DNA of 22,908 nucleotides from positions 1 through 22,908 of the forward strand of contig JALVPN010000218.1 of the NCBI GenBank assembly GCA_027031765.1. The letters are read 5' to 3'. The position numbers and the translations under genes are program-made. The notes beneath the pieces are model-generated. The model had not been told where the DNA came from, ran no database searches, and saw nothing but the letters and a program-made list of their open reading frames with translations. This DNA comes from Promethearchaeota archaeon (GTDB lineage: Archaea > Asgardarchaeota > Thorarchaeia > Thorarchaeales > Thorarchaeaceae). Below, in pieces: positions 77 through 20,717 of the stretch (the first letter of the stretch is position 1; every line of letters starts with the position of its first letter).

Positions 77-1051
77 TTGCCAGTGATGACGTACCGGGAG
101 GCACTCCGCCAGGGCCTCCGTGAGGAGATGCTCAGGGACGAACGTGTGTTCCTCATGGGTGAGGACATCGGACGCAACTGGGGCGGCGCCTTCAAGGTCA
201 CAAAGGGCCTGGCCGAGGAGTTCGGCGACGAGCGTGTGCGTGACACCCCCATCTCCGAGAACACGATTGTGGGTGCTGCGGTCGGTGCGGCGATTACGGA
301 CATGCGCCCTGTGGCTGAGATAATGTTCGGCGACCTGATCACCTTGGCAATGGACCAGGTCTGCAACCAGGCTGCCAAGATGCGCTACATGTTTGGTGGC
401 CAGACATCGGTGCCACTGGTCATCCGGACGGTCTTTGGCGGTGGCAAGAACATAGCGTCACACCACTCTCAGAGCCTCGAGGCGTGGTTCATGCACACCC
501 CCGGTCTCAAGATTGCAGTCCCCGCCTTTGCGTATGATGTGAAGGGCCTCATCAAGACGGCCGTCCGTGACCCCGACCCCGTGATGTTCTTCGAGCACAA
601 ACTCGTCTACGACAAGAAGGAGGAGGTGCCTGAAGAGGAGTACCTCATCCCATTTGGGCAGGCGCGGGTCCGGAGAGAGGGCGACGACGTGACGGTCTGG
701 GGCACGTTCCTGATGCTCCACAAGGCCCTCGAGGTCGCAGAGGGACTTGCAAAGGAGGGCATCAGCGTCGAGGTGATTGACCCACGGACTCTGGCCCCGC
801 TCGACAAGACAACCCTCATCAACTCCGTAAAGAAGACCGGCCGCCTCGTGCTCGTCACTGAGGAGACGAGGACGGGTGCCACCACCGCCGAGGTCGCTGC
901 ACTGGTCCAGGAGGAGGCCTTTGACTGGCTCGATGCACCGATAAAGCGGGTCAACGCACCGGACACCCCGGTACCCTTCAGCCCACCGCTGGAACAGTTC
1001 TTCATCCCGGACAACAAGCGCATTGCAGAGGCCATCAGGAGCATTGTGTAG
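77..1051 (+). CDS. pdhB: 2-oxoacid/acetoin dehydrogenase E1 beta subunit (transketolase-like pyrimidine-binding and C-terminal domains)
   Basis: 324 aa with motifs TYREAL..EEM.RDERVFLMGEDIG, GGAFKVTKGL, RVRDTPISE, RPVAEIMF, HSQSLEAWF, PVMFFEHK, EVIDPRTLAPLD and PVPFSPPLE. Substrate (pyruvate, acetoin or branched-chain) cannot be resolved by eye. Confidence 0.93.
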   Translation: MPVMTYREALRQGLREEMLRDERVFLMGEDIGRNWGGAFKVTKGLAEEFGDERVRDTPISENTIVGAAVGAAITDMRPVAEIMFGDLITLAMDQVCNQAAKMRYMFGGQTSVPLVIRTVFGGGKNIASHHSQSLEAWFMHTPGLKIAVPAFAYDVKGLIKTAVRDPDPVMFFEHKLVYDKKEEVPEEEYLIPFGQARVRREGDDVTVWGTFLMLHKALEVAEGLAKEGISVEVIDPRTLAPLDKTTLINSVKKTGRLVLVTEETRTGATTAEVAALVQEEAFDWLDAPIKRVNAPDTPVPFSPPLEQFFIPDNKRIAEAIRSIV

Positions 1052-1207
1052 TCGGTCTGGCACGGCCACCACCAGATGCGTGGCCAGAGTGTCCAGGCAC
1101 CGCCCGTTGTCCCGGGCCTACATGGTTGCCCCATGACACAGCACTGGGCTGGCCACTGTCCCCCTCGCTCATCCCGGCCCACTGACGCCGGTATGCCTTG
1201 CAGTACC

Positions 1208-1215
1208 ATTAAATA
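1208..1215 (+). promoter_or_regulatory. Candidate TATA box upstream of E2
   Basis: ATTAAATA is the only AT-rich island in the GC-rich 231-bp gap between E1-beta and the E2 ATG at 1283. Confidence 0.4.
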
Positions 1216-1282
1216 CGGTGTACCTGCAACCCAGCCCGTTGCTGGCGACCAGTCGGTGACTCTCACTGTTGGGGTTCGTACA

Positions 1283-2509
1283 ATGGTCACAATAATGATC
1301 ATGCAGCGCATGAGTGTCGCGATGGAGTACGGCGTCATCCTGAAGTGGCTCAAGAAGGAGGGCGACCGTGTCAGGAAAGGCGAGCCCGTCGTCGAGGTGT
1401 TCGGCGAGAAGAGCGAGTTCGAGCTCGAAGCACCTGCCGACGGCGTCCTGTTGAAGATACTCTGTGATGTTGACGACGAGATCCCGATAAGCGAGCCCAT
1501 TGCAGTCATCGGTGAGGAGGGCGAGGAGGTGCCGGATGTGCGCCCGCGCAAGCTCTCTGCGGGCGTGCCAGCAGCAGCCACCCCCGGAGTCACAGCAGGG
1601 ACTACTGCCCCAGCAGCCACATCGGCCATACCCGGGGGCGCCCCACAGACAACCCCCCAGCCGACCAGCAGCAGGTTGCCCGGTGGTAGGATCCGTGCCT
1701 CACCACGTGCCCGCATGCGTGCCCGCGAGCTCGGAGTCGACCTCTCACAGGTCGTGGGCACCGGGCCGGGAGGACGCATTGTTGAACGTGATGTGGTCGC
1801 GTCCAGCCAGACTGTCGCTCCCGTGCAGGCCCGGGTCAGGAGTGTGGAGCCCCTGTCGCCACTGCGGCGCACCATTGCCCGGCGCATGACCCAGAGCTGG
1901 CAACACCCGCACATCACCATGATAACCGAGATTGACATGACCGAGGTCGTTGCCTTCCGCGAGGAGATCAACAGGGACTCTGATGTCAGGGTGTCGTTCA
2001 ATGACATTGTCATCAAGGCGGTCGCGGACACTCTGGAACGCTTCCCACGTTTCAACGCCACCCTCGTCGGTAATGAGCTGCACCTCTTAGATGACATCAA
2101 TATCGGTGTGGCAATGGCGACTGACGACGGCCTGATTGTCCCAGTGGTGCGGACTGCAAACAGGAAGACAATAACTGAGATTGCGCGCGAGACGAAGGAC
2201 CTGGGCCGTCGGGCCCGCGCAGGGACGCTACGTCCTGAAGAGCTTACCGGCAGCACCTTCACAGTATCTAACTTGGGGCCGTTCAGGGTGGACCTGTTCA
2301 TCCCGGTGGTCAACCCGCCCGAGACCGCAATCCTCGCACTCGGACAGATAAAGGAGAGACCGGTCGTCGTGGGCGGCTCCATTGAAGTCCGCCCGGTGAT
2401 GATGGCCAGCTGTGCTGTTGACCACCGCGTCCTTGACGGTGCACCAGTCGGACAGTTCCTCGCAGCCCTGAAGGACTACCTTGAGAACCCATACTTCATG
2501 TCGGTATAG
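1283..2509 (+). CDS. pdhC: Dihydrolipoamide acyltransferase E2 (lipoyl domain, E3-binding domain, catalytic domain)
   Basis: Start moved from 1076 to ATG 1283, where the lipoyl domain begins (MVTIMIMQRMSVAMEYGVILKWLKKEGDRVRKGEPVVEVFGEK...EAPADG). A Pro/Ala/Thr linker, the PSBD (ASPRARMRARELGVDLSQVVGTGPGGRIVERDV) and the catalytic DHRVLDG motif follow. Confidence 0.93.
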   Translation: MVTIMIMQRMSVAMEYGVILKWLKKEGDRVRKGEPVVEVFGEKSEFELEAPADGVLLKILCDVDDEIPISEPIAVIGEEGEEVPDVRPRKLSAGVPAAATPGVTAGTTAPAATSAIPGGAPQTTPQPTSSRLPGGRIRASPRARMRARELGVDLSQVVGTGPGGRIVERDVVASSQTVAPVQARVRSVEPLSPLRRTIARRMTQSWQHPHITMITEIDMTEVVAFREEINRDSDVRVSFNDIVIKAVADTLERFPRFNATLVGNELHLLDDINIGVAMATDDGLIVPVVRTANRKTITEIARETKDLGRRARAGTLRPEELTGSTFTVSNLGPFRVDLFIPVVNPPETAILALGQIKERPVVVGGSIEVRPVMMASCAVDHRVLDGAPVGQFLAALKDYLENPYFMSV

Positions 2510-2599
2510 GGACCGGGACTTGGCGTCCTCGCACGACCCAGCCTGCAAACGTGTGTGGCGCCCCGCACGGGCTGATACTGTGTACCTTTATTAGGCACT

Positions 2600-2730
2600 G
2601 TGTAGGACTTACACTCGGCGTGGCAGTCCAATCTGCCATGCCAGACTCGCAACAAGCGACATCTGCTCACCTCTCTTTGGGAGACCCCAAAGGGCCTCTG
2701 CCGGCGCGGATACTTCCGACGTCGGCAGAG
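2600..2730 (+). ncRNA. Candidate structured RNA element (run of hairpins) between E2 and lplA
   Basis: Consecutive stems at 2600-2614, 2617-2642 (10 bp), 2647-2659, 2673-2694 and 2696-2730 (15 bp with one bulge). The wobble pairs are G-U only on the + strand. No family recognised. Confidence 0.4.
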
Positions 2731-2813
2731 AATTCCCTACTCATTTCTGAAACAGTTAAGTACACAACGGAGGGCGTAGTGGCCAGTGCACAGTGTTGTT
2801 GCTGGTGGTGTAG

Positions 2814-3632
2814 TTGCGGTGCAGCCCATGGCGACTGATTGATGAGGGCACAGGTGACATATTCTACAACCTTTCAGTGGAGGAGGCACTTGCCCGGGCC
2901 AACGCAGAGCGGGTGGAGAAGGAGAACACGCTCCGCCTCTGGATGTCGCGTTCTGCAGTGGTGCTGGGCCGGTTCCAGTGTGTCCACAAGGAGGTCAACC
3001 TCGTGTACTGTACGGATCACGGTGTGGCGGTTGCACGACGGTTCACAGGTGGCGGGACAGTGTACCACGACCCAGGAAACCTCAACTTCACAGTCTGCGT
3101 TGACCAGCATGAGCCGTATGTCACACGGACGCTCCCCGAACTGTACTGGAACTTTGTGGGGGCCATCAGCAGGGGTCTGCAGCAGGTCGGTGTACCGGCG
3201 GTCTACGATGCAGAACGGTCATGCATGCGCATCCACGGCCGCAAGGTCTCCGGGATTGCTGGGTGGGTCAAGCGTGGGGTCGCCTTCATCCATGGCACCC
3301 TCCTCGTGGACTCCGACCTTGACCGCCTGCATCATTGTCTTGACGTCCCCCCCGGACAGCCGGTATACGCCCGGCCGGACAGCAAGGTGCGCTGCCTTGA
3401 GAGCAAGCGCGACATCGTGACGACCATTGCACGCGAGCTCGGTTCAACCCTGTCACTCGACGACATCAAGCATGCAGTCATTGCGGGCATCTGCGGTTTC
3501 ACTGGCTGTGTCATCGAGCCCGACACCCTGACCCCTGATGAACGCCAGCTTGCAGAGGCTTTATATCGTGACCGCTACAGCCACCCCGAGTGGAACCTGG
3601 GAGTTCCAGTCCGAGACCAACTGACACAGTGA
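2814..3632 (+). CDS. lplA: Lipoate-protein ligase A family protein (BPL/LplA/LipB catalytic domain only)
   Basis: WRLID, YNLSVEEAL, TLRLW, AVVLGRFQ, RRFTGGGTVYHDPGNLNF, GRKVSG, HGTLL and terminal Y..PEWNLG motifs. TTG start. BRE/TATA-like GAAACAGTTAAGTA at about 2749-2762. Confidence 0.9.
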   Translation: MRCSPWRLIDEGTGDIFYNLSVEEALARANAERVEKENTLRLWMSRSAVVLGRFQCVHKEVNLVYCTDHGVAVARRFTGGGTVYHDPGNLNFTVCVDQHEPYVTRTLPELYWNFVGAISRGLQQVGVPAVYDAERSCMRIHGRKVSGIAGWVKRGVAFIHGTLLVDSDLDRLHHCLDVPPGQPVYARPDSKVRCLESKRDIVTTIARELGSTLSLDDIKHAVIAGICGFTGCVIEPDTLTPDERQLAEALYRDRYSHPEWNLGVPVRDQLTQ

Positions 3633-9010: not shown

Positions 9011-9949
9011 GTGTACCGTAGCTCTTCGGTGACCACTTTGTATGTGAAGATCCGTACAGATGGAGCTGTTGGCATAGGTCGCGGAGGCGAGGGCGAGGGC
9101 GACATTGCTCTCGGCTATGGAGAGGCGCACATGATCGCTGCCGCCCTTGAGAAGCTTGCCCAGACGGCACGGAACTACAAACAGACCTACAAGAAGACCA
9201 CGGATGTGGGCAGTGGCAACAAGATCGAGTTCGAACGCAGCGACGACGGCACGATAACAATCAGTGGCGATGGCCAGACCATCATATGCTCCGAGGAAGA
9301 GATCCGCGAGCTTGCGCGTCTGCTCAAGGAACTACCACCCATCGAGGTCGCGCCGCCATCGGACTATGTCGAAACGATTCCGCCGAGCGGAGGTTTCTGT
9401 CTGGCAGTACTGGGCGACGGTGGGTCTGTCCGCCTCACGCTCCCTGATGCCGCCCTCCTCAAAATATCTGTGCTCAACAGTATGAACAGCAAGTACTATG
9501 AGGAGCCCATCGTCATAGGGGAGCGGGAGCTGAGTGTGGTGCGCACCAGTGACCTGAAGTGGGAACTGAAGGCTGATGGCGAGTCTGTTCGGTTCACTGC
9601 ATACGAGGTCGAGTCCGTGGTGGCAGGACTGCACAATGGTATCCTGGATGTGCTGATGAATCTTGTAAAGTCGATGGGCTCGGATGAGATTGCTGACATC
9701 CGTGTGAAGAGCCACATCCAGCACCTTGAACAAGAGGTCACTTTGATTCTCCAGGAACACAAGAAGGCCAAGAACATTGTCAAGGACATCATGAAGTATG
9801 GTAAGAAGGTGCTCGCCTCGGGTGAGGACGCTGATGTGCGTGCTACGGAGTTTATCGGACTGTGTCAGTACGTGTACTCGTGTCTGGACCCCGTGTACTT
9901 CGAGCCGCTCTTCGCGCTGTTTTCGTCCATCTTTGTGGTCGAGTCGTGA
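9011..9949 (+). CDS. Hypothetical protein with four beta-beta-beta-alpha repeats and a helical C-terminal domain
   Basis: 312-aa ORF with a normal coding-like composition. CGGAATAG-TTTTGTAA (BRE/TATA-like) at 8991-9006 suggests the true start may be the leaderless GTG at 9029. Confidence 0.8.
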   Translation: MYRSSSVTTLYVKIRTDGAVGIGRGGEGEGDIALGYGEAHMIAAALEKLAQTARNYKQTYKKTTDVGSGNKIEFERSDDGTITISGDGQTIICSEEEIRELARLLKELPPIEVAPPSDYVETIPPSGGFCLAVLGDGGSVRLTLPDAALLKISVLNSMNSKYYEEPIVIGERELSVVRTSDLKWELKADGESVRFTAYEVESVVAGLHNGILDVLMNLVKSMGSDEIADIRVKSHIQHLEQEVTLILQEHKKAKNIVKDIMKYGKKVLASGEDADVRATEFIGLCQYVYSCLDPVYFEPLFALFSSIFVVES

Positions 9950-10037
9950 CCGTCCCGGCAGTCCGCAACTCTTATGAGTGGGGGCCTGTCAGGCTGCGGC
10001 GGGGCTGCGGTCATCCGTGACTGTGCCCCTGCCTGCT

Positions 10038-10940
10038 ATGAGGAGGCCCACGACACTGTCGGCGCTCGGTTATCTCAGGCAACTGCACAAGCGCTGGGGC
10101 GTGCGCAGTCTGGTTCAGGCCCTCAAGATGTACCGGTTCCACAGGGTTCCCTTCGAGACCCTCCTGACGGACATGTTCGGTGCACTTGATACCTACGCCG
10201 CCAAGTTCGCCTTTCCCATTGTGGCACTGGTCGCGAGGATGCGTCCAGATCTTGTCCAGATGATTGAACGGGAGGGCCACGAGGTGGCGAGCCACGGGTT
10301 CAACCATCTACGCTACCCAAACTTGACCCCACAGGCACGTGAGGAGGACATAGTGTCCAGCCTCGCTGTCTTCGAGTCCCTTGGTGTCAGGGTACGCGGT
10401 TTCCGTGCACCCTACAACAACTATACGGATGACATGCCCCTGCTGCTGGACCGTGTTGGCATCCTGTGGGACGGGGGTTTCGGGTACCGTCCTGAACACC
10501 GCGGCCGTCACATGTTCTTCCACGTCAACCACCGCGGCCGTCGACTGTCGACCACGTTCATTCCCCTGAATGCCTGGAGCGACGACCGCATGATTGATAC
10601 CGATGGTATGGGGCCGTCCCAGATCACACGGCGTCTTGTCCACGAGGTCACACGGGTGGCAGACCTCGGTGGTGTCATAATGTTCGACTTCCACCCAGTC
10701 CGGTTTGGCCAGCCGCAGTATGTAGGCTGCCTGGCCCGGCTCGTGGAAGAGGCACATTCGCTTGGGGGGTGGTGCCCCACTCCGGCAGAGGCGGTGGAGT
10801 ACTGGGGGCAGCACGGACGGTGGCCCGGAGACGCGCGGTTCTGCCTGCTCCTGACAGGGGATATTGACAACTGGGTCTTCTCAGACTATCTGCGGCGTGT
10901 TATCTGGGCCCGTCAGGCCCGCCACCTGAGAGTGAGGTAG
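10038..10940 (+). CDS. Polysaccharide deacetylase (NodB/CE4 family)
   Basis: EVASHGFNH metal motif, GFRAPY, and a C-terminal MFDFHP motif. The start is uncertain (track start 9978; ATG 10038 preferred). Confidence 0.85.
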   Translation: MRRPTTLSALGYLRQLHKRWGVRSLVQALKMYRFHRVPFETLLTDMFGALDTYAAKFAFPIVALVARMRPDLVQMIEREGHEVASHGFNHLRYPNLTPQAREEDIVSSLAVFESLGVRVRGFRAPYNNYTDDMPLLLDRVGILWDGGFGYRPEHRGRHMFFHVNHRGRRLSTTFIPLNAWSDDRMIDTDGMGPSQITRRLVHEVTRVADLGGVIMFDFHPVRFGQPQYVGCLARLVEEAHSLGGWCPTPAEAVEYWGQHGRWPGDARFCLLLTGDIDNWVFSDYLRRVIWARQARHLRVR

Positions 10941-10947
10941 GACGGCC

Positions 10948-11409
10948 ATGGGACGACTGCTCGGTAGGCTGCTGCGTGTGCTCGCATGGCTGGCACCAGT
11001 GTACCAGTTCCGTGTGGCCTGTCACCGCAGGTGCGGCGTCAAGATTGGCAGGGGCGTCTTCATAGGCGCCAATGTCATGATTGACAGTGAGCACCCAGAC
11101 TACGTTGAGATTGAGGACTGGGCGTCAATCGGCCCGGGTGTGATGGTCATGGCGCACTCCGGTGCCAGCCCATACCACCAGCGCTTCAAGATATACCACG
11201 GCCCCCCGAAGAAGGTCACCATCAAGCGTGGTGCGTGGGTCGCGTCAGGTGCAATCATACTCCCGGGAGTGACTGTGGGCGAGGGGGCGATTGTGGCTGC
11301 GGGAGCAGTGGTGAGCCGCGACGTCCCACCAATGACAATGGTCGCCGGGAACCCCGCACGTGTCGTGCAGAAGCTCAACAGTGACGGGACGCAGGACAGC
11401 CACTACTGA
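10948..11409 (+). CDS. Hexapeptide-repeat (left-handed beta-helix) acyltransferase
   Basis: GVKIGRGVFIG, EIEDWASIGPGV, HSG, and VTIKRGAWVASGAIILPGVTVGEGAIVAAGAVVSRDVPP.TMVAGNPARV. Confidence 0.9.
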   Translation: MGRLLGRLLRVLAWLAPVYQFRVACHRRCGVKIGRGVFIGANVMIDSEHPDYVEIEDWASIGPGVMVMAHSGASPYHQRFKIYHGPPKKVTIKRGAWVASGAIILPGVTVGEGAIVAAGAVVSRDVPPMTMVAGNPARVVQKLNSDGTQDSHY

Positions 11410-11420
11410 CCCTTGAGTCC

Positions 11421-11657
11421 TCAGCCCCTGAGCTTTCGTGCGAGTGCGGCCCTGAGGTCTCCAACGGTCCAGATCTCGACGACCTCCTCGTCCTCGAAGG
11501 TCACACCGAACTCGTTCTCCACCTCGCTTATCAGTACCAGGTGGGCCATGGCGTCCCACGGTTCATAGTCCTTCCGTCTGATGTCGTCCTTCAGCTGGTC
11601 CCCGTCAAGGAGCAGCACTTTCGCGACAATCTCTGACAGCCTTTCGTCAACGCTCAT
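11421..11657 (-). CDS. acpP: Acyl carrier protein (FkbH-associated type); Ala occupies the phosphopantetheine Ser position
   Basis: 78 aa, acidic, with the ACP pattern W-D-x-M-x-H-L-x-L-I-x-E-x-E-x-E-F-G-V-x-F-x-D-E-E...TVGDL. The motif reads WDAMAH (GCC at 11552-11550) rather than WDS. It starts 9 nt after the fkbH stop, with a GAGGAG SD. Confidence 0.85.
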   Translation of the reverse strand: MSVDERLSEIVAKVLLLDGDQLKDDIRRKDYEPWDAMAHLVLISEVENEFGVTFEDEEVVEIWTVGDLRAALARKLRG

Positions 11658-11666
11658 ATCCAGCAG

Positions 11667-13496
11667 TCACTCCTCCACAAGCTCGACCCACTCCGGGACA
11701 TCCACTGTCCTCTCCGTGAGGTCGAGGGTCCACACCCTGACGCCGTCCTGTTCTACGGGCCCCTCAAAGCCGTGTTTCGAATAGAAGTCGCTGGCTGGAG
11801 CATTCTTCTTGGACGGTATGAACTCACCGACCAGTCTCTTCGCGCCACCCTTTCTGGCGTCGGCCACTATCTTGGCCAGGAAGGCGGTCTCGACAGACCT
11901 CCCGATGACCCTACAGCTCATGAGGAATGAGTCCACAACCCACTCCTCTGCGCCCTTCCTCACGATTGCCACACCGACGATGCCCTCATCGCCGAACCTG
12001 TCGCTCACGGCCATGCAGTATACGGCCACATCGCCGGAGTCGCTCATTTCCCTGACCTGCGCATCAGTGTACCGTCGTGTGGTTAGGTTGAACTGGTTCG
12101 TCTTGCCTATGAGCTGCACGACGCGTGGCATGTCGAAGTCGGTGGCCTCCCTGACTGTGACCCTCAGTCCGAGCCCCCTCAGGAAGTCTTCGAGAGAGCC
12201 GGCAGTCCGTTCCAGCTCGGCCCGCTTTCGCTTGCCGACATACATCTCACCACGGCGCATGTCCTCCTTTGTCAGGGAGAGGACGTCGAACACATCCAGT
12301 GCCTCAATGGTCTGTCTGTACAGGCGTGGGTTGCTGGGCAGGTCGACCACCATGACTTCAGGTAGCGCCTGTCTGACCTGTTCCCGCTCGTGCGGGTTGT
12401 CGTCTATGAACACCATGCTGTCGAGCCCGATGTTTATCTCATTGGCCAGCTCGATGAGGTTCTGCACCTTGCTCTGCCAGTTGATACGCAGTGCAGCGAA
12501 GTGTTCTTCCCTCAGGACCTGGTACGGGTGCTCCCTCAGTACCCTTATTGCGTCGTCAAAGTTGTTCTTGCTGTTGACGGCCAGTATCACACCCCGGTTG
12601 TAGAGGCTCAGCAGCGCCCTCTGGAACTCGACGTACTCGACGCCCGGAGAGGTCGTGCCGAGTCTGATCCCGTCGAGGCCGTCCTCCCCGACAATGCCGC
12701 CCCAGAGGGTGTTGTCGAGGTCGACGACAATGCACTTCTTTGCACGGCCTTTGAGGGCCCTGATATACCGCACGTACTCTGCCGCCAGTCTCAGTGAGAA
12801 CTCCTCGCTGAAGGGGACTGAGCCCCGGTAGTACGTGTTCCAGTTCACGGCCCGCTCCTTCCCGAGTGACGACGCCACAGAGTCCACATCCACGACGAAC
12901 ATCCGGCTGGAGTCCCTCACCCCCTCTTCCATGCGCCGGTTGGCGCCGCGGACGAACTCCCGCAGTCCCATCTCCTGCTTGTTGTCGACCACACCGAGGG
13001 GCGTGAATGTCGGTACAATGAAGTTGTTCACGAGGACAAGGGCCGATGTCCTCTCCTCCAGTCTGCGTGCAGTGTCGAGGAGCTCGGCCACGGCCCTCTC
13101 CTGTGCCTGCACGCGCTCATCGTGTCCCATCCTCACGAAATCTGGGATGAACGTCTTGTCAAGGAGTGACCATACGTCCACGGCAAGGACGACCACATCA
13201 GGCTCAAACCCGTACAGACCGGAGTTGTCGTCGAGGACTTCCTGCCTGTACGTGTTGAACCCGCCGACGAACGTCGCCACGACAAGTCCCTCCAGCCTTG
13301 CCTTGACATCGGTGCATGCTGCAAGTGGTTCCAGAGTCGCCGAGCCGATCACCGCCAGCCGCAGTCGTCTTGTAGGGTCGTCCGGCAGGTCAACTCCCAT
13401 CCTCTGGATCTTCTTGTAGGCACTCCAGTGGTTGAGGTAGCTGGGGTCCTCGCGGACGGTCGCCAGCACTTCCTCCACTGTGCTCTCATGGCTCAC
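11667..13496 (-). CDS. fkbH: FkbH-like HAD-IIIC protein (glyceryl-ACP synthase type; N-terminal SGNH-like, HAD and C-terminal GNAT-like domains)
   Basis: KKCIVVDLDNTLWGG, LAVNSKNN, INWQSK, FIDDNPHER, KTNQFNLTTRRY, DRFGDEG and FLMSCRVIGR motifs. The GTG start overlaps the acpS stop (GTGA). Confidence 0.92.
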   Translation of the reverse strand: MSHESTVEEVLATVREDPSYLNHWSAYKKIQRMGVDLPDDPTRRLRLAVIGSATLEPLAACTDVKARLEGLVVATFVGGFNTYRQEVLDDNSGLYGFEPDVVVLAVDVWSLLDKTFIPDFVRMGHDERVQAQERAVAELLDTARRLEERTSALVLVNNFIVPTFTPLGVVDNKQEMGLREFVRGANRRMEEGVRDSSRMFVVDVDSVASSLGKERAVNWNTYYRGSVPFSEEFSLRLAAEYVRYIRALKGRAKKCIVVDLDNTLWGGIVGEDGLDGIRLGTTSPGVEYVEFQRALLSLYNRGVILAVNSKNNFDDAIRVLREHPYQVLREEHFAALRINWQSKVQNLIELANEINIGLDSMVFIDDNPHEREQVRQALPEVMVVDLPSNPRLYRQTIEALDVFDVLSLTKEDMRRGEMYVGKRKRAELERTAGSLEDFLRGLGLRVTVREATDFDMPRVVQLIGKTNQFNLTTRRYTDAQVREMSDSGDVAVYCMAVSDRFGDEGIVGVAIVRKGAEEWVVDSFLMSCRVIGRSVETAFLAKIVADARKGGAKRLVGEFIPSKKNAPASDFYSKHGFEGPVEQDGVRVWTLDLTERTVDVPEWVELVEE

Positions 13497-13960
13497 TTCT
13501 TATCACCATCTCCAGCTGCGATGATACTGACTGCATCGTCCACAGCCGCACGCTGTCCCTCGCTAGGCCCCTCCCCGGCACTGTACAGGGCGACCGCTAT
13601 TGCATGGGTGGCTGAGTGGGACAGGCTCACATAGACCGTCCCCGTGCACAGACCGCCAAGACGGACATAGGGCGCACCTGACGCCTCCCTCAGTATCTCT
13701 ACTGTCCGGAGTGAGGCCGCCTGGTCGGACACCCCTGAGAGGGCCTTCAGTGTGGCCTCCTTCGCAGCAAAAGTGGCTGCAAGGTGAGGTGCCGGGTCAT
13801 CATAGCCGTAGCAGTAGGCAATCTCCCCCTTTGTGAACACTCTCTGGATGAAGTTCGACTCGCGGCCCATGTGCCTGAAGCGGTCTATCTCGATTATGTC
13901 CGCACCAATGCTCCACTCTGTGCGTCTGGTCTCGGTCAATGTTCTTCGGCCTGTGCTCAC
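13493..13960 (-). CDS. acpS: Holo-ACP synthase (4'-phosphopantetheinyl transferase, AcpS type)
   Basis: IGADIIEIDRF, RVFT..EI.YC, FAAKEA.LKAL, EI....GAP and VSLSH motifs. The true start may be TTG 13939, given the TATA position. Confidence 0.9.
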   Translation of the reverse strand: MSTGRRTLTETRRTEWSIGADIIEIDRFRHMGRESNFIQRVFTKGEIAYCYGYDDPAPHLAATFAAKEATLKALSGVSDQAASLRTVEILREASGAPYVRLGGLCTGTVYVSLSHSATHAIAVALYSAGEGPSEGQRAAVDDAVSIIAAGDGDKK

Positions 13961-13968
13961 CAGGTCCT

Positions 13969-13976
13969 CTTATAAT
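13969..13976 (-). promoter_or_regulatory. TATA box of the acpS-fkbH-acp transcription unit
   Basis: ATTATAAG on the minus strand, preceded by CGAATCC (BRE-like), in the 36-nt gap after the helicase gene. Confidence 0.55.
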
Positions 13977-13996: not shown

Positions 13997-15445
13997 TCAC
14001 TTTTCCGGGACACCCGACCCGTCCTTGTCGACCGCTCCCAACACGGCCGTCGACCAGGGGTACCGTTCGAGGACTCTCTCGAACAGCCTCCTGACCTTCT
14101 TCTCCTCGGACGTACCGGAGTAGGCGAGCAACACCACGAGGCCGCCGCGGGTGCGCTTGAACTTCTGGTACATGGTCTTTGTGGTGTTGATAGTATCACA
14201 GACGACCATCAGGTCAGCCTGCGGCAGGTCGAGGTCACGTTCGCCCACTGGCGACATCACCAGTACCCTTGTCTGAGGGTCTTCACGGAACCTGCGGAGG
14301 ACAGCCCCCTTGTCACGGGTGCTGCCGGTCACTGTGACAACATGCAGGCCTGCCTTCTCAAGGACATCTTCTATCTGTCGCACCATCTCTACATACGAGG
14401 TCAGTACCACTGTTTTCTGGTACCGCACTGCAAGTCCGAGTACCTTTGTGACCTTCGCCGAGACCGATGGCAGCGAGCGCCTGAGGGCTGCAACGTCAAA
14501 ATAGTGCTGCAAGTAGTCGTTGTAGAACTTCCTGACAAGGCTCTTGGGTGGCATCGCGAAGACGAACTTGCGGAGCATCAACAGCCCCGTATACCGGCCC
14601 TTCAACTCGTCCCGGACTGGCAACCGCTCTATCATCAGGTATAGCCTGCGGGGGTCGCCCTCGATAAGGTGGAGATTGCCACCCTCTTCCAGTTCGGCAA
14701 CAATCTCGGCCTTGGTGCTTGCCAGCAGCTCGTCGAGGACCGTCGAAATCGCCCTGATGTGGTCGTCTGTAACAGTGACGACCGTCAGCAGAGTGGGCCT
14801 CAGATAGTCGGTCACATCGGTCTGGTACAGGTCCTCCATGGCTATGAGCTCGAGGTCTGGCAGGTGCTCCCGCAGGGTGGTCAGCTCGTCCCGTATCTCA
14901 AGCTGCTCGCCGGTCAGCACCGCATGGTCATCACGGATGGTGCCGCTCATTGCGATGACCCACTTGTTGCGGATCAGTCCGACCAAGTGCGACCAAGGGT
15001 ATACCAGGGTGGCGCTGTCACCGTGTCTGCGCACCATCTTGTCGACCTCGTTTATGATCACCATGTCAAAGGGCTCTATCAGTGACGGGTCGTCTGTGAG
15101 AACCGAGGCGAGGACCTGGGGTGTGGCCACTACGACCCGCTTCTCCCGCATCACGTATGCCCTCCTCTTTGACGGCACCCTCGACGAGAGCTCACCGATG
15201 CAGTCCCCTAGTCTGCCGTACTCATCACGGAGGTACTGGATGGTCTCTGCAAGTGAGGACGACGAGTGGACAATGATGATGGCCCGCGCGTCCGCGAACC
15301 GTTCAGCGACTATCTGGTGGGTTATGAACCTCTTGCCGAGTCCGCAGTCCAGCTCTATCAGCACATCCCGACCACGCAGCCCCTCCAGTCGCTGGAGGAT
15401 GTACTCCTGATACCCCCGGGGGGTGTATTCCTCGTGTTGTGGCAT
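13997..15445 (-). CDS. Divergent Hef/FANCM(ERCC4-like helicase)-type SF2 protein, two RecA domains, no nuclease domain
   Basis: Start moved to ATG 15445 (482 aa). Q motif PRGYQ, Walker A-like LDCGLGKR, Ib VVATPQ, II NEVD, III SGT, V SPVGERDLDLP, VI QKFKRTRG. Confidence 0.8.
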   Translation of the reverse strand: MPQHEEYTPRGYQEYILQRLEGLRGRDVLIELDCGLGKRFITHQIVAERFADARAIIIVHSSSSLAETIQYLRDEYGRLGDCIGELSSRVPSKRRAYVMREKRVVVATPQVLASVLTDDPSLIEPFDMVIINEVDKMVRRHGDSATLVYPWSHLVGLIRNKWVIAMSGTIRDDHAVLTGEQLEIRDELTTLREHLPDLELIAMEDLYQTDVTDYLRPTLLTVVTVTDDHIRAISTVLDELLASTKAEIVAELEEGGNLHLIEGDPRRLYLMIERLPVRDELKGRYTGLLMLRKFVFAMPPKSLVRKFYNDYLQHYFDVAALRRSLPSVSAKVTKVLGLAVRYQKTVVLTSYVEMVRQIEDVLEKAGLHVVTVTGSTRDKGAVLRRFREDPQTRVLVMSPVGERDLDLPQADLMVVCDTINTTKTMYQKFKRTRGGLVVLLAYSGTSEEKKVRRLFERVLERYPWSTAVLGAVDKDGSGVPEK

Positions 15446-15482
15446 CTCGTCCACTTGTCGGCATTCCCCGTTATTAGGCCCG

Positions 15483-15881
15483 CTAGAAGGCCTTGAACAC
15501 CTTTGCCAGCGACGGCCCGCACACATGCATTGCAAACTCGTTCAGCCCCGCGTGCACAATATGCACGTCGTACTCGCGTGTCCGCAGGCGGGTGGCGGTC
15601 TCCTCGATAATTGCCTGTGCCTCTTCGGGTGTGGCCTTCTCTCCACCAAGGTGTGCAAAGGAGTGCAGCACCACCTGTCTGAGCCTGTGCTTCTGGGCAA
15701 TCCAGCGGATATTCTTCACCATCTTCCTGAGCACGGCGGTCCTGTCGTCTATGTCCTTGCTCTCAGCCTCAACCCAGACGAGGATGCAGTCTTCAAACCG
15801 GGTGGCGGTCCCACTGCTGTCACTGTCCTCGTCGTATGGGGCGTACCAGTAGTCCTTCACATGGAACATGAGCATCCGCAT
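15483..15881 (-). CDS. Free-standing archaeal threonyl-tRNA synthetase editing domain (DTD-like fold)
   Basis: MRMLMFH start, central VVLHSFAHLGGEKATPEEA, and C-terminal F.MHVCGPSLAKVFKAF, paralleling the archaeal ThrRS N-terminal editing domain (MRxLxIH...PF/YAHL...GHPLAELSR). Confidence 0.8.
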   Translation of the reverse strand: MRMLMFHVKDYWYAPYDEDSDSSGTATRFEDCILVWVEAESKDIDDRTAVLRKMVKNIRWIAQKHRLRQVVLHSFAHLGGEKATPEEAQAIIEETATRLRTREYDVHIVHAGLNEFAMHVCGPSLAKVFKAF

Positions 15882-17819: not shown

Positions 17820-18857
17820 TTGTCATTGAGTGACGAGACTCGGAACTTGCTGAAACGGCTTGGGGCTATCCAGTCCTCCGAGAACCTCCCCCGGTCACTG
17901 CAGATACTCATTGCGCTCCTCCGGAGTCAAGGCTCACCTATGAGGCCCCTGTCATTCGGTGAGCTGTATGGTGCGATGCAGCAGATAGCTGGGTCGGACC
18001 TGACGAGGGCATGGGTGCACAGGGTCTTGAAAGGTCTTGTCGATGATGGCATTGTGAAGACCATGCCGGGCAAAGGACGGGCCCGGTACTACACGGATGT
18101 GGACACGATTGCCGACGGTCTGGAGCGCATGCGGGAGGCCCGGATGACGCACATCCGTGAAGAGGTCGCAGCGTTGCATGCCGAACTCGTGGAGCTTGAG
18201 AAGTGTGACTGTACTGCTCTTGCCGAACGTCTGTACATGGAGGTCACAGGGACGAGTTCAGCCCCGTGCTCGAGGCTGCTGAAGGGAATAGACGAGTTCC
18301 ACGATGTGACTAGCGAACTGATATACCGTGTGGCGCGTCAGGGTGATGTGATCCGCACCTGCCCCCTGTGGGTCAGTGAGTTCGTGGAGAATGCGCTGGT
18401 GCGTCTATCCCGACTCCTCGTCGCAGCTGAGCAAGGGGTTGAGATACGCTATCTCCTGACCAGCGACGCCTTCGTCCTTGACGATGTGCTCAGTGCAAAC
18501 GTGGACTTTGATGGTGTCCGGAAGTTCTTGGCAAAGACCTTGGAGCTCAGGAGGGCTGGCAAGAAACTCGATGTCCGGGTGTATTTTGGGCCCAAGGACA
18601 CATATCAGTTCGTGGCCCTCAACTCCGAACGGATTGCGTTCCTACTTGCTAGAGAGCCAATCACCGCTGTGTACTTCACCCGCGCCTTCAACGCAGACCT
18701 CATTGATGCCACGATTGCCACTTTTGATGTCAACTGGGAGAACGCAGTTTCCATGTTCGACCCGACCGTTCTGGAGCGGTTCCCACGTAGGGGCTTCATC
18801 CTAGATGCCCTCCTACGCTCTTTCGAGTCAGATGGCAGTGGGGGGCCCGGTAAATGA
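17820..18857 (+). CDS. TrmB-like transcriptional regulator 1 (winged HTH, coiled coil, PLD-like effector domain)
   Basis: TTG start with GAGGTGA SD. wHTH SFGELY...TRAWVHRVLKGLVDDGIV...RARYY; heptad helix; C-domain GVEIRYLL...YQFVALN...TFDVNWENA. Confidence 0.75.
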   Translation: MSLSDETRNLLKRLGAIQSSENLPRSLQILIALLRSQGSPMRPLSFGELYGAMQQIAGSDLTRAWVHRVLKGLVDDGIVKTMPGKGRARYYTDVDTIADGLERMREARMTHIREEVAALHAELVELEKCDCTALAERLYMEVTGTSSAPCSRLLKGIDEFHDVTSELIYRVARQGDVIRTCPLWVSEFVENALVRLSRLLVAAEQGVEIRYLLTSDAFVLDDVLSANVDFDGVRKFLAKTLELRRAGKKLDVRVYFGPKDTYQFVALNSERIAFLLAREPITAVYFTRAFNADLIDATIATFDVNWENAVSMFDPTVLERFPRRGFILDALLRSFESDGSGGPGK

Positions 18858-19780
18858 GTCGTGACCGACTATCAGGGGCCCTCTCGCTCCTTGGCATGAA
18901 TCTGGACAGGAAGCCCATGCGTGTGCTGGCGGCTGTTATCAGTGCGTGTTCCCATGAGGACAGACCGGCAACGTTTGCAGAGGTCTACGCAGAACTCCTG
19001 AGGTCTGAGGAGCATGACCCGGGGGCCAAGCCGCTTGTGTACCGGATGTTGTCAAGACTGGAGCGTTCCGGCCTCGTGCAGGTTGACAGGAGCTCGTATC
19101 ATCACCGGTACTGGGTTGACAGGGGTCTGTTGACCGTAGCCTTCCACGAACAGAAGTATAGGACCATCACCATCAACCAGGCACGTATCAAGGAACTGCG
19201 GGGACAGGCCCAGCGCATCAGTATGCTTGACCCCTCGGCCCTTGCACAGGCCATGATTGCTCACATGACCAACAACCTGGTGGAGCGCTCGCGCTCGGCT
19301 ATCGGCGCCGCGGTCACCTCGAAGCTTGTTGAAGAGTATGTATATAGCCGTGCAAAGTCAGGAGACACCATACGTATTGCCCTGTCAAGTGTTCCAATGG
19401 GTCGAGAGCACCTGCGCATACGGGTAGACCGGTTGAAGGAGATAGTGAGCCAAGGTTGCCGTGTACATGCAATACTCTACTCTTTCCACACGTGCCCCCC
19501 TGAAACAGCCGAGTCCCTGATGTCCATCCGAGTGTCTACCGCAGAGTCATCTCCGCTCCGTGTGCTGTACAGCGTGGAGCCTATCCGTAGCTACCAGTTC
19601 GTTGCACTCAACAAGGAGAACATGTTACTTGTAGTGTCCACGAACCCTCTCGCAGTGGTTCTCGTAACACATAGGATGCAGCCGCGCATCATAGAGGACG
19701 TTATCGAGCGCTTTGATGCTGACTTTGAGAGAATGATACACGAGCTGGAACAGGACGGCGGGGTGCCAAATGGACTATGA
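18854..19780 (+). CDS. TrmB-like transcriptional regulator 2
   Basis: ATGA overlap with the upstream gene. wHTH ATFAEVY...PLVYRMLSRLERSGLV...HRYW; C-domain GCRVHAIL...YQFVALN...RFDADF. Confidence 0.75.
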   Translation: MSRDRLSGALSLLGMNLDRKPMRVLAAVISACSHEDRPATFAEVYAELLRSEEHDPGAKPLVYRMLSRLERSGLVQVDRSSYHHRYWVDRGLLTVAFHEQKYRTITINQARIKELRGQAQRISMLDPSALAQAMIAHMTNNLVERSRSAIGAAVTSKLVEEYVYSRAKSGDTIRIALSSVPMGREHLRIRVDRLKEIVSQGCRVHAILYSFHTCPPETAESLMSIRVSTAESSPLRVLYSVEPIRSYQFVALNKENMLLVVSTNPLAVVLVTHRMQPRIIEDVIERFDADFERMIHELEQDGGVPNGL

Positions 19781-20717
19781 GGAGATGCAGGACTGGCTGG
19801 CCCTGTTGGGGCTTGACCTCTCGTCACGAGAGATGTTGATTCTGCGGGCAGTACTACGTATCGCCACACAGTCTGGAGGGTTTGCCACTGCCGCTGACAT
19901 CCACAAGGAGATTGCGCATACGGAGGAGCGAAGCATTGCGAGGTCGTGGATATACAAGTGCTTGGCCTCTCTTGAGAAACAACACTTCATCCTGGCCGAC
20001 CATGTGGCCTCTCCCAAACGCTATATCGCAACTGAAGACACTGTGCGTGCGGCCATCGAGTTGCTGATCCGTCACCGCTCTCAAGACATAGAGTCTGAGA
20101 TCCGTACACTGAAGGATAGTCTCCGTAAGACGGAGAGTGTGAGTCCTGCCCAGGTCGCGAACGACCTCTATGACTACGTGTTGGGAGAGCATGATGGCAC
20201 TCGTGCAACGACCCTTGAGAGCGCACAGCAAATCCGCGCTCTACTGACCGAGAAGATACAGGCCCTTCCAGCTGGTTCCATTGTCAGGGCAATAGAGCCA
20301 TCCCTGACGTACGATGTTGAGAGCATACTTTGGGACGTGGTCGAAACTGCTCTGGCGGCCGTGAAACGCGGTGTGAAGTTCCGTGTCCTGTTTGTAGTTG
20401 CGCCTGATGACTACAGGGTCGATACGGTATATGATGCTATCGACTCCTATGGTCCCGAGGCCAAGAGTACCATACTGTCCTCCAAGATTGAACTCCGACA
20501 CATACTCCGCGAAGGACTGACATACCGGGCAATCGTGTTCAATGACGAGTCGATGATACTGATTGTGACCGCAATGGCCCCGCTAAGCCAAGGCGTGTTC
20601 CTGACGCGGGACGACAACCCGCTGCTCATCCGTGATACCATTGCCAAGTTCGAGGAGTACTGGGCCCAGGGACGTGAACTTGCAAAGGCCATCCGTGAAC
20701 TCCAGCGTGATGGCTAG
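19770..20717 (+). CDS. TrmB-like transcriptional regulator 3
   Basis: 11-nt overlap with the upstream gene. LLGL.LS.RE..IL.A, ATAADI...RSWIYKCLASLEKQHFI...PKRY; C-domain RGVKFRVL...YRAIVFND...KFEEYWAQG. Confidence 0.8.
   Translation: MDYEEMQDWLALLGLDLSSREMLILRAVLRIATQSGGFATAADIHKEIAHTEERSIARSWIYKCLASLEKQHFILADHVASPKRYIATEDTVRAAIELLIRHRSQDIESEIRTLKDSLRKTESVSPAQVANDLYDYVLGEHDGTRATTLESAQQIRALLTEKIQALPAGSIVRAIEPSLTYDVESILWDVVETALAAVKRGVKFRVLFVVAPDDYRVDTVYDAIDSYGPEAKSTILSSKIELRHILREGLTYRAIVFNDESMILIVTAMAPLSQGVFLTRDDNPLLIRDTIAKFEEYWAQGRELAKAIRELQRDG

Follow-up and report, generated by a model that had tools for sequence, protein, structure and literature searches.

The closest described relatives of the locus considered here are the FkbH- and OzmB-type loaders of polyketide, tetronate and non-ribosomal peptide synthetase (NRPS) pathways. 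Enzymes of the FkbH type accept 1,3-bisphosphoglycerate and dephosphorylate it, which leaves a glyceryl thioester on a carrier protein (PMC8949500). Acyl carrier proteins (ACPs) and AcpS, their activating enzyme, are described as missing in almost all archaea, a few having been gained by transfer (PMC3533463; bioRxiv 10.1101/2024.07.05.601840), and the literature thus agrees with the general statement from which the original prediction for this locus had started. The locus lies in a 22,908-nt stretch of DNA, contig JALVPN010000218.1 of assembly GCA_027031765.1 (hereafter the window), from an Asgard archaeon of the Thorarchaeota. It had been described, from the sequence alone, as a complete bacterial-type operon of AcpS, FkbH and ACP whose acceptor pathway was undefined. 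We herein report that the unit comprises five genes and not three: the trio is accompanied by a homologue of CE4 polysaccharide deacetylases (PDA) and by a hexapeptide-repeat acyltransferase of the left-handed beta-helix (LbH) type (Hexa). On balance, we consider it probable that these genes form an accessory cassette which de-N-acetylates an amino sugar and then re-acylates it with a glycerate-derived group delivered from the ACP.

In common with the FkbH/OzmB systems, the loader encoded here matches TIGR01686, bears the HAD motif DxDxT and a C-terminal cysteine, and has a small carrier protein encoded directly downstream; the presumed substrate, 1,3-bisphosphoglycerate, is the same as well (PMC8949500). 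On the other hand, there is no assembly line, the partners are CE4 and LbH proteins, the host is an archaeon, and the cassette supplies an AcpS of its own, the host being without any further carrier-protein system. In logic only, and with no claim of membership, the locus resembles the LpxC and LpxD steps of lipid A synthesis, in which an amino sugar is de-N-acetylated and then N-acylated from a hydroxyacyl-ACP by a left-handed beta-helix transferase. Unlike LpxC, the deacetylase here is a CE4 protein with no homology to the LpxC fold, and unlike LpxD, Hexa belongs to the maltose/galactoside/WcaF branch of LbH proteins, while the acyl group would have three carbons instead of being a fatty acid. 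A further likeness is found in the flagellin glycosylation locus of Campylobacter jejuni, which also holds extra acpP genes, in a strain that makes di-O-methylglyceroyl pseudaminic acid; we know of no biochemical demonstration that links its gene cj1302 to the glyceroyl group. The gene cj1302 encodes an FkbH domain and is mentioned within this glycan-modification locus (PMC7099621), yet the system is bacterial and has no CE4/LbH pairing. The same linkage of Hexa, a CE4 deacetylase, FkbH, ACP and AcpS, although uncharacterised, occurs in Nitrosopumilus, other Asgard families and several bacterial phyla, from which the Thorarchaeota cassette differs by the absence of VOC, MaoC or SDR genes and by its fixed chromosomal site away from other glycan genes. 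Literature searched for FkbH in connection with glycan, polysaccharide, pseudaminic or archaea contained no work on a cassette of this kind, the mention of cj1302 being the sole related item, and the public annotation of its genes reads only ‘HAD-IIIC family phosphatase’, ‘acyl carrier protein’ and ‘polysaccharide deacetylase family protein’.

The composition of the unit is evident from its inheritance. Open reading frames and family profile matches bear out three genes on the minus strand, AcpS (13493–13960), FkbH (11667–13496) and ACP (11421–11657), and two plus-strand genes, PDA (9978–10940) and Hexa (10948–11409), converge on this trio. A ten-gene order is common to Thorarchaeota metagenome-assembled genomes (MAGs) and runs geranylgeranyl reductase (GGR), ThrRS editing domain (ThrRS-ED), helicase, AcpS, FkbH, ACP, Hexa, PDA, the gene orf9011 and a purple-acid-phosphatase-like gene. 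Five genomes of the same family without FkbH (G001, G007, G008, G009 and G012) lack exactly PDA, Hexa, ACP, FkbH and AcpS, while both flanks, the phosphatase-like gene with orf9011 and the helicase with ThrRS-ED and GGR, are intact; orf9011 and the helicase are then separated by about 15–45 nt in four of the five and by about 90 nt in G012. Across 85 genomes of the family, FkbH is found in 39 and a Hexa orthologue in 39, and presence or absence of the two agrees in 81, a figure that serves as description and not as a statistical test, related genomes not being independent. The four mismatches are due to contig ends or to an FkbH paralogue of 30% identity.

The five genes also keep company beyond the Thorarchaeota. 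Among 400 sampled Asgard genomes, FkbH scores above its cut-off in 66, including at least five further families, and in none of the 135 genomes of the largest Asgard family. Two Asgard families, f18 and f20, hold the same five genes in two other orders, and the f18 cassette adjoins STT3/AglB, the oligosaccharyltransferase. In Nitrosopumilus, Hexa, a CE4/DUF3473 deacetylase, FkbH, ACP, a VOC protein and AcpS are clustered, surrounded by genes for an NDP-sugar pyrophosphorylase, a 4,6-dehydratase, a DegT aminotransferase, GT2 and GT4 glycosyltransferases and a TylF-type methyltransferase. The VOC gene, of the glyoxalase family (PF13669), is a sixth member in f18, f20 and Nitrosopumilus (e.g., L076 9425–9832, L077 3845–4261 and L032 9927–10355) and may alter the carrier-bound acyl group, for example by epimerisation or isomerisation; bacterial versions of the cassette have MaoC dehydratase and SDR genes in its place. 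The synteny comparison across Thorarchaeia and other Asgard genomes that the original prediction had called for thus yields both a shared gene order and a unit that persists when that order changes. Because PDA and Hexa co-vary with the trio and travel with FkbH, ACP and AcpS elsewhere, the acceptor pathway is not invisible, as had been thought: an LbH acyltransferase and a CE4 homologue adjoin the trio and are gained or lost with it as one block.

Separately from this cassette, a second FkbH-like type, about 30% identical and above the TIGR01686 cut-off, occurs in some Asgard genomes, one of them of the same family (L074, L075, L079 and L080, in G028, G005, G055 and G110). Beside these genes, tblastn found no recognisable ACP, AcpS, Hexa or PDA.

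The identities of the minus-strand genes are clear. AcpS belongs to the 4'-phosphopantetheinyl transferases (PPTases), with scores of 56.3 bits for PF01648 (cut-off 25) and 65.9 for TIGR00556 (cut-off 45.35) and a single-domain size in the expected range of about 120–150 aa; the acpS equivalog model TIGR00516, at 58.7, is slightly below its cut-off of 59.8. The gene is the sole PPTase match in the genome. The FkbH-like loader has 609 aa and combines an FkbH_N domain (PF21211, 40.4 bits against a cut-off of 27), a HAD-IIIC phosphatase domain (TIGR01686, 315.2 bits against 146.65, residues 252–578) and a C-terminal domain with a cysteine. Its sole solved relative, BF1531 (PDB 3slr), was matched over residues 43–409, which correspond to the N-terminal and HAD domains. 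Motif I of the HAD domain, D259-L-D261-N-T263, is intact, and an alignment of 60 FkbH homologues shows D259, D261, T263, S309, K343, D365 and D366 to be invariant, as is the C-terminal S527-C528-R529 (60/60); the observation that both the DxDNT and the SCR motifs are preserved therefore stands. By analogy with OzmB, we take C528 to be the residue that holds the acyl group. The small stand-alone carrier protein (78 aa) scores 22.6 bits for PF00550 against a gathering threshold of 20.8 and is the genome’s sole PP-binding match. Judged by its sequence, it is not the AcpP of fatty acid synthesis, because all AcpP equivalog models score far under their cut-offs. In Thorarchaeota and other Asgard families, as in Nitrosopumilus and bacteria, its gene comes immediately downstream of FkbH.

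The signals for expression of the trio were found largely as described. The AcpS stop and FkbH start overlap as GTGA (13496–13493), and the gap between FkbH and ACP measures 9 nt (11666–11658). The GGAGGAG proposed as the Shine-Dalgarno sequence of ACP (11676–11670) is weak evidence for such a role, because GGAGG is 14 nt from the ATG and the motif lies within the last codons of the FkbH coding sequence. Upstream of AcpS, in the 36-nt spacer past the helicase stop codon, stands the TATA-like element ATTATAAG (13969–13976, minus strand). Since about 20 of 23 Thorarchaeota orthologues of AcpS keep it in their upstream regions, a dedicated archaeal promoter is credible, in keeping with the TATA box first proposed. 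The element ends just 9 nt ahead of the GTG at 13960, which makes the TTG at 13939 probably the true start of AcpS, with a transcript leader that would be very short or missing; the context ACATTG is repeated in several AcpS orthologues.

On the plus strand, the first gene of the pair, PDA, matches PF01522 with 53 bits. Its start is uncertain, as the public gene call of 307 aa would begin near 10017. The AlphaFold model of PDA has a mean confidence (pLDDT) of 89.6, and its best Foldseek matches are PuuE and CE4 deacetylases, with a template-modelling (TM) score of 0.64; ArnD, which acts on a lipid-linked sugar, was also found. The stretches GHEVASHG, GFRAPY, WSDD and MFDxHP are conserved, and with them both the fold and the His-His, RxPY, DxxD(W/Y) and LxH motifs that mark CE4 enzymes are present. 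The second gene, Hexa, matches PF00132 with 55 bits and is the proposed transferase on the acceptor side. H70, the catalytic histidine of the maltose/galactoside-acetyltransferase branch, is nearly invariant in 23 cassette-linked homologues, and the nearest solved relatives are maltose and galactoside O-acetyltransferases.

From these gene identities a pathway of four steps can be proposed. AcpS, with coenzyme A (CoA), would convert apo-ACP to holo-ACP. The FkbH-like enzyme would dephosphorylate 1,3-bisphosphoglycerate on its HAD domain and pass the glyceryl group held on Cys528 to holo-ACP. The CE4 enzyme would strip the N-acetyl group from an amino sugar of the GlcNAc type, probably lipid-linked or nucleotide-linked and bound for an N-glycan or another surface glycan, and the LbH acyltransferase would finally move the glyceryl group from the ACP to the freed amine or to a hydroxyl. 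The genome has a gene for phosphoglycerate kinase (PGK), hence the means to make 1,3-bisphosphoglycerate. While the identities of the genes, the intactness of their catalytic motifs and the joint inheritance of all five are shown, we infer the nature of the substrate, of the acceptor and of the acyl donor from homology and gene context; modification of a surface glycan or lipid-linked sugar, an idea raised in the original prediction, is the best reading of a cassette whose relatives are linked to glycan genes.

The only role of FkbH-type enzymes that has been biochemically established is a different one (PMC8949500), and the module could accordingly be thought to supply a glyceryl-ACP starter or extender, of the methoxymalonyl-ACP or tetronate kind, to a polyketide or non-ribosomal assembly line. 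We regard this as extremely improbable. A search of the genome, which is 95% complete, found no NRPS condensation domain and no MBOAT protein, and thereby extends to the whole genome what had first been noted for the window. Matches to ketosynthase models are weak and partial (27–33 bits over about 60 of 252 model positions) and belong to proteins of about 395–400 aa, which by their size we read as thiolases. The genome has just one ACP and one PPTase, and the conserved neighbours of the trio are sugar-modifying enzymes. With a single ACP and PPTase, no condensation domain or MBOAT and weak ketosynthase matches only, a classical polyketide role is ruled out.

In one respect the operon is not complete, as it had been called. 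Codon 36 of the window ACP (11550–11552, minus strand) is GCC and encodes alanine at the position of the serine to which phosphopantetheine is attached, so that the attachment site reads W-D-A36-M, whereas a TCN serine codon stands there in all 57 homologous loci compared. The D-S-L/M signature at the start of helix II is found in the orthologues and broken in the window ACP, and the nearest database relatives, at up to 79% identity, read WDSM. GCC is one transversion away from TCC. Among 31 distinct Thorarchaeota sequences, S36A is the sole unique deviation of the window ACP from an invariant column, and the window ACP is a singleton among 5.8 billion clusters, which yielded no near-identical allele with serine. 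Because the attachment serine is replaced, the ACP copy as assembled cannot work as written.

Public contigs of the likely source run offer a clue to this change. These Logan contigs, from a hydrothermal-vent metagenome with a coverage of about 9x, match the region without differences except for two holes, at 11493–11552 in ACP and at 12454–12544 in FkbH, which suggests strain-level variation within both genes. One of these contigs ends at 11553, adjoining the changed base 11552. In a de Bruijn graph, contigs end in this manner at branching positions, and the break beside 11552 hints at a Ser/Ala polymorphism. Two scans of JGI metagenome contigs for the exact pattern, in which the Ser/Ala base was set to N, gave no match. 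S36A is either a null allele that segregates within the population or a base call that is erroneous or reflects a minority.

One might suppose instead that the cassette is a dead or dying relic in this organism, with S36A real, fixed and the first step toward the clean loss seen in sister genera. Serine, as TCN, occurs in all 57 homologues and alanine only in the window, and the cassette is often absent even within a genus (in genus g6, 20 of 28 genomes have the Hexa orthologue), both of which favour such decay. Yet unique changes at conserved sites are not in excess in the remaining four genes, and every frame is open: FkbH has L189M, T562S and I604V, all conservative, PDA has D147N and L238F, and AcpS and Hexa have none. 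Moreover, the contig ends beside the base suggest coexisting alleles and not fixation, and coverage is only about 9x. A relic is, in our view, somewhat unlikely, and a cassette that de-N-acetylates and re-acylates an amino sugar remains the reading that we prefer.

Several points weigh against this preferred reading and should be set beside it. An ACP with Ala36 is unable to carry anything. Glycerate as the substrate is assumed by homology only, and lineages may not share one final acyl group, the VOC gene being absent from the Thorarchaeota cassette. In this genome the cassette stands beside no glycosyltransferase or AglB, the AglB gene being on contig C40. PDA lacks the N-terminal TFDD, which provides the catalytic base and a metal ligand, at its usual place, and its Pfam match begins only at profile position 19. 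After the last beta-strand, at the C-terminus (residues about 275–290), PDA has an invariant L-T-G-D-I-D-N, and the T-G-D-I-D-N within it may replace the TFDD, which would amount to a circular permutation of the CE4 barrel. Lastly, Hexa is by sequence nearest to acetyl-CoA-dependent O-acetyltransferases of the maltose/galactoside/WcaF type and not to LpxA or LpxD, and a predicted complex of the Hexa trimer with ACP, although it passed, did so with a weak score. Its interface score (ipSAE) was 0.60 against 0.11 for the best control, which is rated as weak support: of 80 solved complexes 58 passed the mark, as did 2 of 110 mismatched pairs, but at or below 0.60 only 7 of the 80 solved complexes passed, along with both mismatches. 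The runs agreed in at least 74% of contacts, and the partner had a pLDDT of at least 85. LbH–ACP complexes have already been solved, and the pass may reflect the model’s memory of them.

Apart from its bearing on catalysis, the CE4 subfamily with a C-terminal T-G-D-I-D-N is common in Thorarchaeota, Promethearchaeota, Kariarchaeaceae and Nitrososphaerales.

Because Hexa is closest by sequence to acetyl-CoA O-acetyltransferases, its donor, acyl-ACP or acetyl-CoA, is the main inference left, with strict co-inheritance with ACP on one side and acetyl-CoA-using relatives on the other. The corresponding alternative is that the trio does make glyceryl-ACP, while the LbH neighbour is an ordinary acetyl-CoA O-acetyltransferase acting on the same glycan and the enzyme that receives the glyceryl group is elsewhere or unknown. 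The best solved and curated relatives of Hexa, which are O-acetyltransferases, and the weak complex prediction speak for it. However, the five-gene block holds no other transferase, and the same LbH subfamily accompanies FkbH and ACP over three gene orders, in Nitrosopumilus and in bacteria; nor did the search of the genome yield an MBOAT, an NRPS condensation domain or a convincing ketosynthase. We therefore judge this division of labour to be rather improbable, and favour transfer of the glyceryl group by Hexa itself.

As the gene families concerned are typical of bacteria, the ‘archaeal ACP’ might also be an artefact of a contig that is bacterial, chimeric or a binning contaminant, the first two of which had been named as possible refutations of the original prediction. 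The window is the entire contig (C218) of a 2.95-Mb genome with 1.4% contamination. Its flanking genes are archaeal by profile matches (archaea-specific ThrRS editing domain, geranylgeranyl reductase and Hef/XPB-like helicase), GC content is flat over the block, and the closest FkbH loci are those of Thorarchaeota MAGs at 64–68% identity. The ten-gene order recurs in independent Thorarchaeota MAGs, on contigs as long as 471 kb and in G341, a genome that consists of a single contig; such synteny already refutes an artefact. FkbH falls within an Asgard clade, and among the 120 closest proteins in a collection of 5.8 billion sequences, all 43 named to an organism come from Asgard archaea, under the names Thorarchaeota and Promethearchaeota and, in one case, Odinarchaeota. 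The contig is not bacterial and not a chimera, the Asgard host is borne out, and an artefact of this kind can be put aside for practical purposes.

How long the cassette has been in Asgard archaea is suggested by the FkbH maximum-likelihood tree, for which bacterial sampling was narrow and which is effectively unrooted. The Thorarchaeota sequences form one clade (support 96/100) that is sister to f18 and f20 (86/96) and apart from a mixed Nitrososphaeria/bacterial clade. Given this Asgard clade, the coherence of genera inside the Thorarchaeota sequences and an insertion site that is always identical, the data fit a long residence in Asgard archaea rather than a recent import from bacteria. The label ‘bacterial-type’ thus holds at the level of the families, but not for the Asgard copies, which form a clade of their own and whose organism-named closest proteins are exclusively Asgard. 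The tree of the flanking helicase is unresolved at depth, and its starred branches force only one change, so that ancestral presence with losses and later spread are indistinguishable on it.

Outside the cassette, its two immediate neighbours are a plus-strand gene on the left, orf9011 (9011–9949), which encodes a conserved Thorarchaeota protein without a Pfam family, and a minus-strand gene on the right (13997–15535) for a Hef/XPB-like superfamily-2 helicase with Helicase_C, DEAD and ResIII matches, which shows 56–63% identity in genomes without the cassette. We considered orf9011 as a cassette member and rejected it, as it stays in the five cassette-less genomes; its position is constant, with the phosphatase-like gene on one side and the cassette or the helicase on the other. 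Farther away, positions 77–3632 of the window encode a 2-oxoacid dehydrogenase E1-beta-like protein (77–1051), a lipoyl-bearing E2 acyltransferase (1076–2509) and a lipoate-protein ligase (2814–3632), which together give a Thorarchaeote a lipoate-dependent complex and a ligase to go with it. Three successive plus-strand open reading frames at 17820–20717 (345, 308 and 315 aa) lack any Pfam match.

Roughly half of the genomes in one Thorarchaeota family, and members of at least two other Asgard families, hold a self-sufficient ACP system, within a domain of life usually described as having no ACPs, and this system comes with its own activating enzyme, loader, likely transferase and deacetylase. 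More tentatively, and with less confidence than we give to the cassette’s function, we suggest that Thorarchaeota and at least two further Asgard families may long have kept an ACP-dependent lineage of their own that swaps a glycan N-acetyl group for a glycerate-derived acyl group, with S36A as a natural null variant segregating in a vent population. The cassette encodes small, soluble proteins that lend themselves to easy in vitro testing, and the Ala36 copy of the window would be a ready-made negative control. If the proposed function is true, it would represent a new class of glycan, possibly N-glycan, decoration in the closest prokaryotic relatives of eukaryotes and the first native carrier-protein chemistry among these archaea, and it would widen FkbH chemistry from antibiotic assembly lines to the surface sugars of bacteria and archaea.

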